Positions 61,316-63,829 of a stretch of 64,000 nt of DNA are shown here, one piece after another (the stretch's first letter is position 1; each line of letters begins with the position of its first letter). The position numbers were made by a program, and so were the translations under genes. The notes under the pieces are model-generated. The model worked only from the letters and a program-made list of their open reading frames with translations. It did not search any database and was not told the origin of the DNA. The stretch lies in NCBI GenBank assembly GCA_965262615.1, contig OZ253545.1, positions 1,056,001-1,120,000 of the forward strand. The letters run 5' to 3'. This DNA comes from Alphaproteobacteria bacterium (GTDB taxonomy: Bacteria; Pseudomonadota; Alphaproteobacteria; GM7ARS4; G965262615).

Positions 61316-61366
61316 GCACTGGACATACCATACTTGCCCCCCCTCCGTCCATGTTTTTCACAACAC
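61316..61366 (-). promoter_or_regulatory. Conserved SLR-gene leader
   Basis: GTGTTGTGAAAAACATGGACGG...TG-G-TATGTC-N6-ATG. Confidence 0.65.
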
Positions 61367-61431
61367 TGAGGCGATTAGGCGGCGACATTGACGAATTCCT
61401 GCAAGCATCACTCACTGAGCAGCTGAAGTAA
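61361..61431 (+). repeat. prfB 3'-end repeat, copy 2 (orphan)
   Basis: Reads NTEA[-2 nt]LGGDIDEFLQASLTEQLK*. Confidence 0.88.
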
Positions 61432-62583
61432 AGCTTCTTGGGCTGGAGCAAGTCCTTGCTCGGCAGCTTTTTGATACAATTCCATGGCTTTTTTCTTATT
61501 CTTTTCTAATCCCCCATAACCATCTTCATACATGAGACCAAGATTGAATTGTGCTTGGGCATACCCTTGATTGGCAGCTTGTTGCCACCAAAACACCGCT
61601 TTTTTTATATTCTCCTTCAATCCCCCCTCACCTTTGCCATACATCAGACCAAGAGAGGTTTGGGCTGAGGCAAATCCTTGCTCGGCAGCTTGTTGCCACC
61701 ATTCCACCGCTTTTTTCTTATTCACCTTCACCCCCAGCCCGTTGTAATACATTATACCAAGATTGTTTTGGGCTTGGGTATACTCTTGTTGGGCAGATTT
61801 TTGATACAATTTCAACGCTTCTTCCATATCCCGCTTCAATCCCCCTTCGCCGTTTTGATACATCACACCAAGGTTGTTTTGGGCTGGAGCAAATCCTTGG
61901 TCGGCAGATTTTTGATACAATTCCAACGCTTTTTCATCATCTTGCGTCACCCCATAACCGTTGGAATACATCACACCAAGATTGTATTGAGCTTCGGCAT
62001 GTTTTTGTTGGGCAGCTTTTTGATACCATTGCACCGCCTTTTCATAATCCTGCGTCACTCCATAACCGTTGGCATACATCACACCAAGATTGGATTGGGC
62101 TTCGGTATTCTCTTGCTCGGCAGCTTTTTGATACCAATACACCGCTTTTTCATAATCCTGCGTGACACCTATGCCATTTTCATACATCACACCAAGATTG
62201 TATTGAGCTTCGGCATGTTTTTGTTGGGCAGCTTTTTGATACCATTGCACCGCCTTTTCATCATCCTGTGTCACTCCCCAACCATTGTCATACATCACAC
62301 CAAGATTGTTTTGGGAATCGGCATGACCTTGTTCAGCAGATTTTTGCCACCATTGCACCGCCTCTTCATCATCCTGCGTCACCCCATCACCGTTGAGATA
62401 CATCCAACCAAGCTCTGCTTGAGATTCGGCATCCCCTTGTTTGGCAGATTGCAATATCTCATAGTGGGAGTCTGATAAGGCATCATTCGCCGCGCTCAAG
62501 GAAAAACATGTCATGACAATGGCGAACAAAAACGCCGTGCGACTCACACGCCCCGCCGAGATATTTGCTTTATGCCAATTCAT
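61408..62583 (-). CDS. Secreted Sel1-like repeat protein (~9 repeats)
   Basis: Signal-peptide-like AFLFAIVMTCFSLSAA, then SLR repeats. Start at 62583 or 62607. Confidence 0.93.
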   Translation of the reverse strand: MNWHKANISAGRVSRTAFLFAIVMTCFSLSAANDALSDSHYEILQSAKQGDAESQAELGWMYLNGDGVTQDDEEAVQWWQKSAEQGHADSQNNLGVMYDNGWGVTQDDEKAVQWYQKAAQQKHAEAQYNLGVMYENGIGVTQDYEKAVYWYQKAAEQENTEAQSNLGVMYANGYGVTQDYEKAVQWYQKAAQQKHAEAQYNLGVMYSNGYGVTQDDEKALELYQKSADQGFAPAQNNLGVMYQNGEGGLKRDMEEALKLYQKSAQQEYTQAQNNLGIMYYNGLGVKVNKKKAVEWWQQAAEQGFASAQTSLGLMYGKGEGGLKENIKKAVFWWQQAANQGYAQAQFNLGLMYEDGYGGLEKNKKKAMELYQKAAEQGLAPAQEALLQLLSE

Positions 62584-62622
62584 CCAATCACTATATCCCT
62601 CGTCCATGTTTTTGCAACACTG
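62584..62622 (-). promoter_or_regulatory. Conserved SLR-gene leader with CAACACTG junction stub
   Basis: GTGTTGCAAAAACATGGACG; TTGCAA-N16-TATAGT-N6-ATG. Confidence 0.65.
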
Positions 62623-63708
62623 TCATAATCTTTCTTTGATTTTATTCAAGGCTTCTTGAGCATCGCCATGACCTTGCTCGGCGGCTTGTTGCCACCATTC
62701 CATCGCTTTTTCCGTGTCTTGCGGGACACCCTCGCCAGTGAAATAAATGATGCCCAGATAGAACTGAGATTGGGTAAAACCTTGCTGGGCGGCTTTGGTA
62801 ATCCATTGTGCCGCCTGCCGATCATTTGCTTCCACACCGTAGCCATCGTAATAAGCCACGCCCAGATTATGCTGAGCGAAAACAAAACCCTGTCCAGCCG
62901 CTTTTTTGAACCATTTCACGGCTTGTGTTTGATCCCTCGTAATGCCATCACCATTGGCATACGCCATACCGAGATTATGCTGGGCGAGAACAAAACCCTG
63001 TCCAGCCGCTTTTTTATACCACCTGACGGCTTCTTTTTGATTCTGCGCGATGCCATCACCATTGGCATACGCCACAGCGAGATTGTGTCGGGCGAGAACA
63101 AAGCCTTTGTGGGCGGCTTTTGTGTACCATTTGACGGCTTCTTCTTGATCCTTCGTAATCCCATCACCGTTGGCATACGCCACGCCGAGATTGTATTGAG
63201 CAGCGCCAAGATTTTGCTCCGCCGCTTTTGTGTACCACTTGACGGCTTGTGTTTGATCCTTCATAATCCCATAGCCATTGTGATAAGCCACACCCAGATT
63301 GAATTGGGCTTGGGCAAGACCTTGTTCAGCAGCTTTTTGAAACCATTTGCCAGCTTCGGTGTCATTCTGGCTCAAAAGACATTCCACACCGTATTGAAAA
63401 TACCCGCGCGGCGAGCCGAAAAACAAACCCTCCACGAAGAAAAGCGATTTTTTAATGGAAGTTGCCATGTCATCATGTGACATCGGCGGCAATGATTGAA
63501 TCATGGCGGGGGAAAACGCGGCAACGAGAAAGAGACAATTCAACAACAATCCCAAGACTTCTGGCAGTCTTCCCAGCCCATCCGTTGCCGCCATAAGGAG
63601 CAGAACAGGAAAATTGCAACAAATAAGTCTTGCAAGAGCCTCCGACAAATCGCGAGGCAGTTGTTCTTTGATGAATTCTAATGTGATTTTGGTATCAGAA
63701 GCAATCAT
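62623..63708 (-). CDS. Membrane-anchored Sel1-like repeat protein (~6 repeats)
   Basis: MIASDTKITLEFIKE and FVEGLFFGSPRGYFQYG match the N-terminal family of the 13951 and 61315 genes. Confidence 0.93.
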   Translation of the reverse strand: MIASDTKITLEFIKEQLPRDLSEALARLICCNFPVLLLMAATDGLGRLPEVLGLLLNCLFLVAAFSPAMIQSLPPMSHDDMATSIKKSLFFVEGLFFGSPRGYFQYGVECLLSQNDTEAGKWFQKAAEQGLAQAQFNLGVAYHNGYGIMKDQTQAVKWYTKAAEQNLGAAQYNLGVAYANGDGITKDQEEAVKWYTKAAHKGFVLARHNLAVAYANGDGIAQNQKEAVRWYKKAAGQGFVLAQHNLGMAYANGDGITRDQTQAVKWFKKAAGQGFVFAQHNLGVAYYDGYGVEANDRQAAQWITKAAQQGFTQSQFYLGIIYFTGEGVPQDTEKAMEWWQQAAEQGHGDAQEALNKIKERL

Positions 63709-63757
63709 GCGCCGGACATACCACGACTGCACTTTTCAATCAATATTTTGACAACAC
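63709..63757 (-). promoter_or_regulatory. Conserved SLR-gene leader (diverged)
   Basis: GTGTTGTCAAAATATTG...GTGCAGTCG-TG-G-TATGTC-N6-ATG. Confidence 0.55.
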
Positions 63758-63829
63758 CAAGAGGCGGTATTAGGTGGCGACATTGACAAATTTTTGCAGG
63801 CATCTTTGACTGCCCAATTGGAGTCATGA
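63752..63829 (+). repeat. prfB 3'-end repeat, orphan copy
   Basis: Reads NT[+2 nt]EAVLGGDIDKFLQASLTAQLES*. Confidence 0.92.

Follow-up and report, generated by a model that had tools for sequence, protein, structure and literature searches.

The stretch of DNA analysed here (hereafter the window; 64,000 nucleotides, positions 1,056,001 to 1,120,000 of contig OZ253545.1) belongs to an alphaproteobacterial genome that consists of a single contig of 1.54 Mb. It carries prfB, the gene for release factor 2 (RF2), followed by an array in which start-less copies of the prfB 3' end, here called orphan tails, lie between genes for Sel1-repeat proteins on the opposite strand (Table 1). The prfB reading frame contains the sequence CTT TGA C at 58954-58960, which we take to be the classic RF2 frameshift site. 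Three start-less prfB ends are found downstream of the gene (tails 2, 3 and 4, the working end being counted as tail 1), and elsewhere in the genome only one remnant was detected. Read along the plus strand, each orphan comes after the leader of one Sel1-repeat gene and runs into the 3' end of the following one. The final serine codon of prfB, read as its reverse complement, supplies the stop codon TGA of gene A, the palindrome TCATGA being common to both genes; the stop of gene D overlaps tail 3 in just the same way, and in gene B the final seven codons together with the stop lie antisense to tail 2.

Table 1. Features of prfB and the array behind it, in window coordinates; positions above 64,000 lie beyond the window.
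Feature	Position	Strand	Basis or remark
prfB (release factor 2)	58864..59989	+	long open reading frame; PF03462 and PF00472 present in homologues of 96% to 60% identity
+1 frameshift site CTT TGA C of prfB	58954-58960	+	read from sequence
Tail 1, working last 25 prfB codons, CAACAC to TGA	59914..59989	+	sequence reading
Sel1-repeat gene A, 443 residues, membrane-type N-terminus	59984..61315	-	Pfam Sel1, 9 stretches, E=2.3e-108
Leader of gene A	61316..61366	-	begins GTGTTG (plus strand CAACAC, 61361-61366)
Tail 2, orphan prfB end	61361..61431	+	2-nucleotide deletion after GCG, Ser codon lost, stop TAA
Sel1-repeat gene B, 399 residues, signal-peptide type	61408..62607	-	Pfam Sel1, E=2.9e-116
Junction of genes C and B without tail	62608..62625		CAACACTG and TCATAA retained, nothing between
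Sel1-repeat gene C, 361 residues from ATG 63708	62623..63708	-	gene A-type N-terminus; Pfam Sel1, E=6.9e-74
Tail 3, orphan prfB end	63752..63829	+	2 extra nucleotides between CAACAC and GAG; RF2 frame otherwise open
Sel1-repeat gene D	63824-64372	-	3' part (63824..64000) inside window, remainder beyond
Tail 4, decayed orphan prfB end	64817-64908		beyond window
Sel1-repeat gene E	64883-66190	-	beyond window

A preliminary description of this DNA had argued from codon counts that each orphan tail had probably formed the actual C-terminus of RF2, in this genome or a related one, and had proposed a comparison with the functional RF2 ends of related strains. To this end, we searched a large protein collection for RF2 and obtained a cluster at 90% identity that comprises 13 proteins, 12 of which include the C-terminus, with a representative 96% identical to the RF2 considered here. 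Among species representatives the closest RF2 is only 60% identical, this genome being the sole member of its family. Set against the ends of the 12 relatives and that of prfB itself, the orphans yield exact matches at the protein level: the distal 19 residues of tail 3, from LGG onward, are those of the functional end of protein P0001 (19/19), and the distal 18 residues of tail 2, likewise from LGG onward, are those of P0128 (18/18), whereas tails 3 and 2 differ from the genome's own prfB end by two and four residues, respectively. For both tails the orphan end of one strain is, as protein, the main-gene end of another. Moreover, all six replacements that distinguish tails 2 and 3 from tail 1 are states found in working ends of relatives, and the last 26 residues of the genome's own end, from Glu316, recur unchanged in P0131. 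On the basis of these matches, the orphans appear to have been, or to exchange with, working RF2 ends, and that part of the preliminary claim is upheld. Insertion with replacement of the 3' end, which the same description had preferred over simple duplication, is plausible.

The ends of the relatives' RF2 vary at a limited set of positions, namely D/E 321, V/I 323, E/D 327, A/K/E 330, A/E 338 and E/K 341. Variable positions number 8 in the last 22 residues, 7 in the 233 residues before position 314 and 22 in the N-terminal 80 residues. Of 45 site pairs within the last 30 residues, 15 display all four gametes, and a single N-terminal type is combined with different ends in P0122, P0127 and P0131, both of which indicate that RF2 ends are recombinant at the scale of a few codons. 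Hence, the relatives' ends are fine-scale mosaics of states that are present in the tails of this genome. In one relative, represented by a contig of 556,494 nucleotides, RF2 was called as two pieces (P0124 and P0125; 173 and 210 residues) with a break near residue 136, which reflects either a frameshift or an assembly error.

At the nucleotide level, the end of the PBP gene and prfB show about 3% (56/1898) to about 5% (108/2032) of differing letters in the contigs of related strains. Among the differences listed, their working tail carries C at 59935, as does tail 2, and A at 59977 together with T at 59978, as does tail 3. Runs X2-X5 (shares 0.07-0.13) were left out of this contig comparison. 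The junction of tail 2 is spanned without a single differing letter by contigs of runs X6, X8 and X9 (3287-3711 in L031 numbering, in which 8779-11934 corresponds to window positions 66779-69934). Read joints from the same comparison track the internal Sel1 repeats and are not readable as structural variants.

The codon changes listed in the preliminary description were all found again in a codon-by-codon comparison. Tail 3 differs from 59924-59989 at 12 of 66 nucleotides, which affect nine codons, seven of them silently and two by replacement (E>D, A>K); a further change, GAT>GAG, lies directly upstream of the part compared. In tail 2, from LGG onward, 12 of 54 nucleotides and ten codons differ, with six silent changes and four replacements, while ACC>ACT and GAT>GAG are found upstream of LGG and at the 3' end the serine codon is gone and TAA replaces TGA. 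The ratio of replacement to silent divergence (dN/dS, Nei-Gojobori), proposed earlier as a check, is 0.14 for tails 1 and 3, 0.15 for tails 1 and 2 and 0.06 for tails 2 and 3. Read in the RF2 frame, 7/9, 6/10 and 8/11 differing codons are silent (tails 1-3, 1-2 and 2-3, respectively), compared with 0-3 silent codons in four of the other frames and 2-6 in the phase-matched antisense frame, so that the synonymous bias is seen in the RF2 frame only, of the six. When equal numbers of transitions and transversions were scattered at random, the probability of obtaining as few amino-acid differences as observed, or fewer, was 0.00045, 0.012 and 0.0005, the three pairs being mutually dependent. A stricter outcome was obtained branch by branch, each unique change being re-placed at random on a site of identical base: 5/6 changes unique to tail 3 (P=0.086), 4/6 unique to tail 2 (P=0.054) and 2/5 unique to tail 1 (P=0.38) are silent. 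The marginal result of this test makes the case for selection on the orphans a modest one from this genome alone. The synonymous bias is real, though not overwhelming on this genome alone.

The depth of the divergence is informative as well. The tails differ pairwise by 18-24% of bases, against the 3-5% that separates related strains over the PBP gene end and prfB, with dS between 0.75 and 2.0 across pairs (tails 1-3: dS 0.75, dN 0.10). Genes A and D, in their 3' parts next to the tails, reach dS 0.6-0.8 and dN 0.31-0.33 (C-terminal 167 codons: dS 0.81, dN 0.33), and the 45-nucleotide leaders next to the tails align poorly. A dS similar to that of the cargo combined with a lower dN suggests that the tail types are old and have been under stricter, RF2-like selection than the Sel1-repeat genes. 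At the free Ala/Lys/Glu codon all three bases differ among the tails, whereas the adjoining codons change silently only.

The tail alignment further revealed two indels that had gone unmentioned before, a deletion of two nucleotides after GCG in tail 2 and an insertion of two nucleotides between CAACAC and GAG in tail 3. To describe the tails as diverging as if still coding for RF2, as had been done, is therefore too strong, because both orphans are frameshifted relative to CAACAC. The orphans are silent at present and are beginning to decay via indels. A whole-genome nhmmer search with a profile of the four tails returned four copies at E<0.001, all inside the array, and a marginal fifth match (E=0.0096) that nevertheless beats all 200 shuffles. 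This remnant lies ahead of the window, 123,203 to 123,169 bases from its start, and constitutes the 3' flank and final codons of a Sel1-repeat gene that converges on a tsaD-like gene, presumably tsaD itself to judge from its N-terminal sequence; its position suggests that a piece of prfB was carried to another locus by a Sel1-repeat gene. Tail 4 and the remnant near tsaD have a 6-nucleotide deletion in common and show an insertion of about 20 nucleotides and residues that are absent from working ends. They represent what long orphanhood looks like, unlike tails 2 and 3. Decay is strongest in the tail farthest from prfB, and it is the stacking of several tails that makes such an order readable. 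Tail 4 has ATTGATGCCTT in common with tail 1 and its 3' part in common with tail 2.

The cargo between the tails is of one kind. Genes A to E each contain 4-10 Sel1 stretches (PF08238) above the Pfam cut-off, with E from 1e-57 to 5e-123. Genes A and C share 53% amino-acid identity, and the N-terminus of gene C is nearly identical to that of P0254. In 4/4 tails the type of the tail end tracks the neighbouring gene: tails ending ..AQLES are paired with genes ending ..SS, and tails ending ..EQLK with genes ending LLQL(L/Y)SE. The last seven codons of gene B (LLQLLSE, 61408-61431) and gene E (LLQLYSE, L031 6883-6908) are antisense to the ..SLTEQLK of the tail, from which it would follow that both genes took their C-terminus from the opposite prfB strand. 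In strains with a working RF2 end ..TEQLKS, prfB and a Sel1-repeat gene of this type would overlap by about 27 nucleotides. At the junction of genes C and B (62608-62625), which has no tail, a tail was probably removed by internal deletion. While RF2 has 13 cluster mates at at least 90% identity, a search with the N-terminal domain of gene A found only two proteins, at 46-49% identity; turnover of the cargo thus appears to be fast. A search with the gene B protein was dominated by long unrelated Sel1 proteins. No Sel1-like open reading frame was found downstream of prfB at any of 29 species-representative loci, within the approximately 1.5 kb examined. Directly after the array (66779-69934) follow a PAPS-reductase-like gene (451 residues) and a GmrSD-type nuclease gene (594 residues), which look like a defence-type pair.

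All tails begin at or near a single boundary. The heptanucleotide GCAACAC occurs both in the Gly-Asn-Thr codons of prfB and where the Sel1 leaders have their conserved start: in 8 of 17 Sel1-like open reading frames of the genome the leader opens, on the minus strand, with GTGTTG(C), which precedes an A-run and ATGGAC. Leaders of this type also occur far from prfB or without a tail, namely at 13951, 72205, 72802, in front of gene E and at a locus 122 kb upstream, and no tail remnant scoring above shuffles was found beside those at 13.9k, 72.2k, 72.8k, gene E and -121.8k (P=0.29-0.65). Since CAACAC occurs in leaders remote from prfB, we regard it as a shared 7-mer and not as evidence of a dedicated insertion or attachment (att) site. 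The homology between gene A and a paralogue in the window (13902-15366, gene 13951-15366; 75% nucleotide identity over 1355 nucleotides) starts at precisely 61366, at the edge of CAACAC. The stop of this paralogue overlaps that of a convergent gene for 343 residues via TCATGA, as gene A does with prfB.

A promoter-like element, TTGCAA-16-TATAGT (62617-62590, minus strand), overlaps the GTGTTGCAA boundary; it would place the conserved MDEGYSDW start of gene B in a promoter and not in the protein. Terminator-like sites were not found within any tail. The leader of gene A contains a run of seven C (61337-61343). A change of this run to six or nine C would bring an upstream ATGGAC (61350-61352, minus strand) into the reading frame of gene A, lengthening the protein by about 12 residues, and the run is possibly a slipped-strand switch or a means of changing promoter spacing.

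Taken together, we propose with a probability of roughly 0.6 that the orphan tails are displaced prfB 3' ends, possibly still exchanged with the working end. Because the converging Sel1-repeat gene reaches across the stop of prfB, any complete copy or import of such a gene has to bring the prfB end along. Sel1-repeat genes of related strains may have been recombined in beside prfB, with the body of prfB as homologous anchor and with the far joint either at the GCAACAC match, by homology-facilitated illegitimate recombination (HFIR), or, once tails existed, inside a tail. In each such event the incoming end would become the working prfB end and the old one would be displaced downstream, and crossovers within the 70-nucleotide tails would then generate the mosaic RF2 ends of the population. 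The direction (import, not copying in place) and the recombination pathway are what we infer from the arrangement. Displacement fits the identity of the orphans with relatives' working ends, the link between tail and neighbour, the fast turnover of the cargo and the advanced decay of the farthest tail.

Several observations weigh against this proposal. The variable residues 314 and 315 sit upstream of CAACAC and crossovers fall inside the tail; apart from the three nucleotide states seen in contigs of other runs, the identity between orphans and relatives rests on protein. In run X1 a tail 3-like end adjoins a gene A-like 3' end, so that tail and cargo are not strictly linked. As tails 2 and 3 are both out of frame with CAACAC, a direct join at this sequence would yield no working RF2 today. 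The base-matched branches of the two orphans are, as stated, only marginally biased. Finally, the block A-tail 2-B aligns with the block C-tail 3-D at 64% identity over 1630 nucleotides, which would also be expected from an old duplication in place.

The last point leads to the rival that survives best, which we consider possible, if on the unlikely side. It assumes a single tandem duplication with GCAACAC at both end points, one in prfB and one in a Sel1 leader; unequal crossing-over and concerted evolution would have come next, whereby short two-way gene-conversion tracts would keep the orphans RF2-like and silent donors would create the mosaic ends of the relatives. Besides the higher-order repeat, a 7-nucleotide match is enough for a slippage-type duplication, every common variable state of the relatives' ends occurs among the four tails of this genome, the four-gamete pattern within 30 residues is in line with short conversion tracts, and tail 4 combines ATTGATGCCTT, shared with tail 1, with a 3' part shared with tail 2. 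However, the longest exact match between tails 1 and 3 (about 17-20 nucleotides) is short for frequent RecA-dependent conversion, and such conversion would be expected to homogenise the tails, which is at odds with their dS. One-way donation would not spare the orphans from replacements, and the cargo is strongly different between strains.

Neutral decay of duplicates that never mattered for RF2, the synonymous excess being due to chance and a C>T/G>A mutation bias, appears very improbable. In its favour, each pair offers no more than 12-13 differences, significance on the base-matched orphan branches is marginal, five of the six changes unique to tail 3 are C>T or G>A at often-silent sites, and both orphans are frameshifted. 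Against this, neutral decay does not account for orphans that equal relatives' working ends over 18 and 19 residues and not the end of this genome's own prfB, for a bias confined to one frame of six, for the contrast between the free codon and its silently changing neighbours, or for a tail dN of 0.10 against 0.31-0.33 in flanking coding sequence at similar dS.

With regard to a dedicated integration system, Pfam identified no recombinase among the 10 open reading frames of the array and its flank. The genome contains only two PF00589 matches (306 and 310 residues, Xer-sized, both elsewhere), serine recombinases and transposases not having been searched for, and the same PF00589 search found no IntI-like gene. 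As single-stranded DNA the tails fold no better than shuffles (z -0.96 to +1.12 in six folds), which gives no indication of an attC-like hairpin. A degenerate pattern of the tail motif had no match in the genome contig collection; its one match in a scan of JGI metagenomes, inside a 1496-residue protein of an unrelated contig, is due to chance. Site-specific insertion of Sel1 cassettes that supply a surrogate prfB end, by an integrase, integron or Xer system using CAACAC or the tail as att, would explain why all junctions lie at one hexamer and why the units are small (one or two genes), and surrogate ends are known for icd (PMC13626634), but it is hardly credible given the absence of a recombinase among the 10 open reading frames scanned, the presence of only two tyrosine recombinases, of Xer-like size, in the genome, the unremarkable folds, the GTGTTG(C) leaders at tail-less loci and crossovers that spread inside the tail and not at a single point. 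The lack of an integrase and of an attC-like hairpin, together with the 7-nucleotide leader match, favours recombination anchored in prfB, that is, C-terminal displacement, over a dedicated element.

A more far-reaching view can be formulated, which we offer as speculation and think rather unlikely: the prfB end might act as a landing pad that renews itself, and the array as a cassette platform for host-interaction-type proteins that needs no integrase, with the orphans as silent donors. Every Sel1 leader of the family would open with the prfB Gly-Asn-Thr codons in reverse complement, overlapping the -35-like TTGCAA, and any such gene that arrived with prfB homology might be captured repeatedly at one 7-mer. 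Through the stacked orphans, the C-terminal end of this essential translation factor would then stay mosaic across the population.

The array invites comparison with several known systems. In silent-cassette conversion of the pilE/pilS type, silent partial copies share variable states with a mosaic expressed gene. Unlike there, nothing in the prfB array points to a programmed mechanism or to a benefit for RF2, the variation being conservative and located at weakly constrained positions. In HFIR, which was shown in transformation experiments with joints of 3-10 bp (PMC6382021), a range that includes the 7 nucleotides found here, homology is one-sided and joined to a short second contact, just as the prfB body and the 7-nucleotide match would be here; in contrast to these experiments, the prfB case is inferred from a scar, and after the first event tails can serve as a second homology.

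The array also resembles the displacement arrays of rhs and cdiA. There, too, a full-length main gene is followed by start-less 3' fragments, each accompanied by an adjacent gene; rhs ends that are orphans in one serovar terminate the main gene in another, and recombination between main and orphan ends is possible (PMC3967940). In contrast, prfB is an essential housekeeping gene with a conserved end and no variable toxin, its neighbour is an opposite-strand Sel1-repeat gene and not an immunity gene, so that toxin and immunity are not paired, and the shared homology amounts to about 70 nucleotides compared with 522 bp at 95% in the Salmonella case (PMC3967940).

The use of a housekeeping gene is paralleled by icd of E. 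coli, which together with its C-terminal fragment icdC flanks e14; here, as at the icd site of phage 21, the insert supplies a surrogate 3' end while the old end stays as a fragment, and the ends differ mainly at silent sites and by conservative replacements, as the prfB tails do (PMC13626634). A duplicated gene end that flanks an insert with mostly silent differences is likewise what the prfB array presents. However, e14, as a prophage, brings a site-specific system of its own (PMC13626634), whereas the prfB array has no integrase that we could find, small units, three to four stacked tails and mosaic ends.

A literature search found no prior description of prfB as a site of integration or insertion. 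If displacement holds, the array would document unusually well how a small genome that lacks integrases gains and shuffles accessory genes, with the end of an essential gene as homology handle. The agreement of tail types with relatives' working ends turns a guess from codon counts into a population observation, and the coincidence of the 7-nucleotide joint with the leader offers a concrete reason for the repeated use of one spot. That unexpressed gene fragments can look selected also calls for caution in gene finding and in dN/dS screens. Compared with the systems above, the displaced prfB ends are probably a leftover of DNA swapping, a known kind of scar; what sets the prfB array apart is the stacking of three to four tails after the gene for an essential translation factor, the evidence from the population and a joint that coincides with the leader of the cargo.

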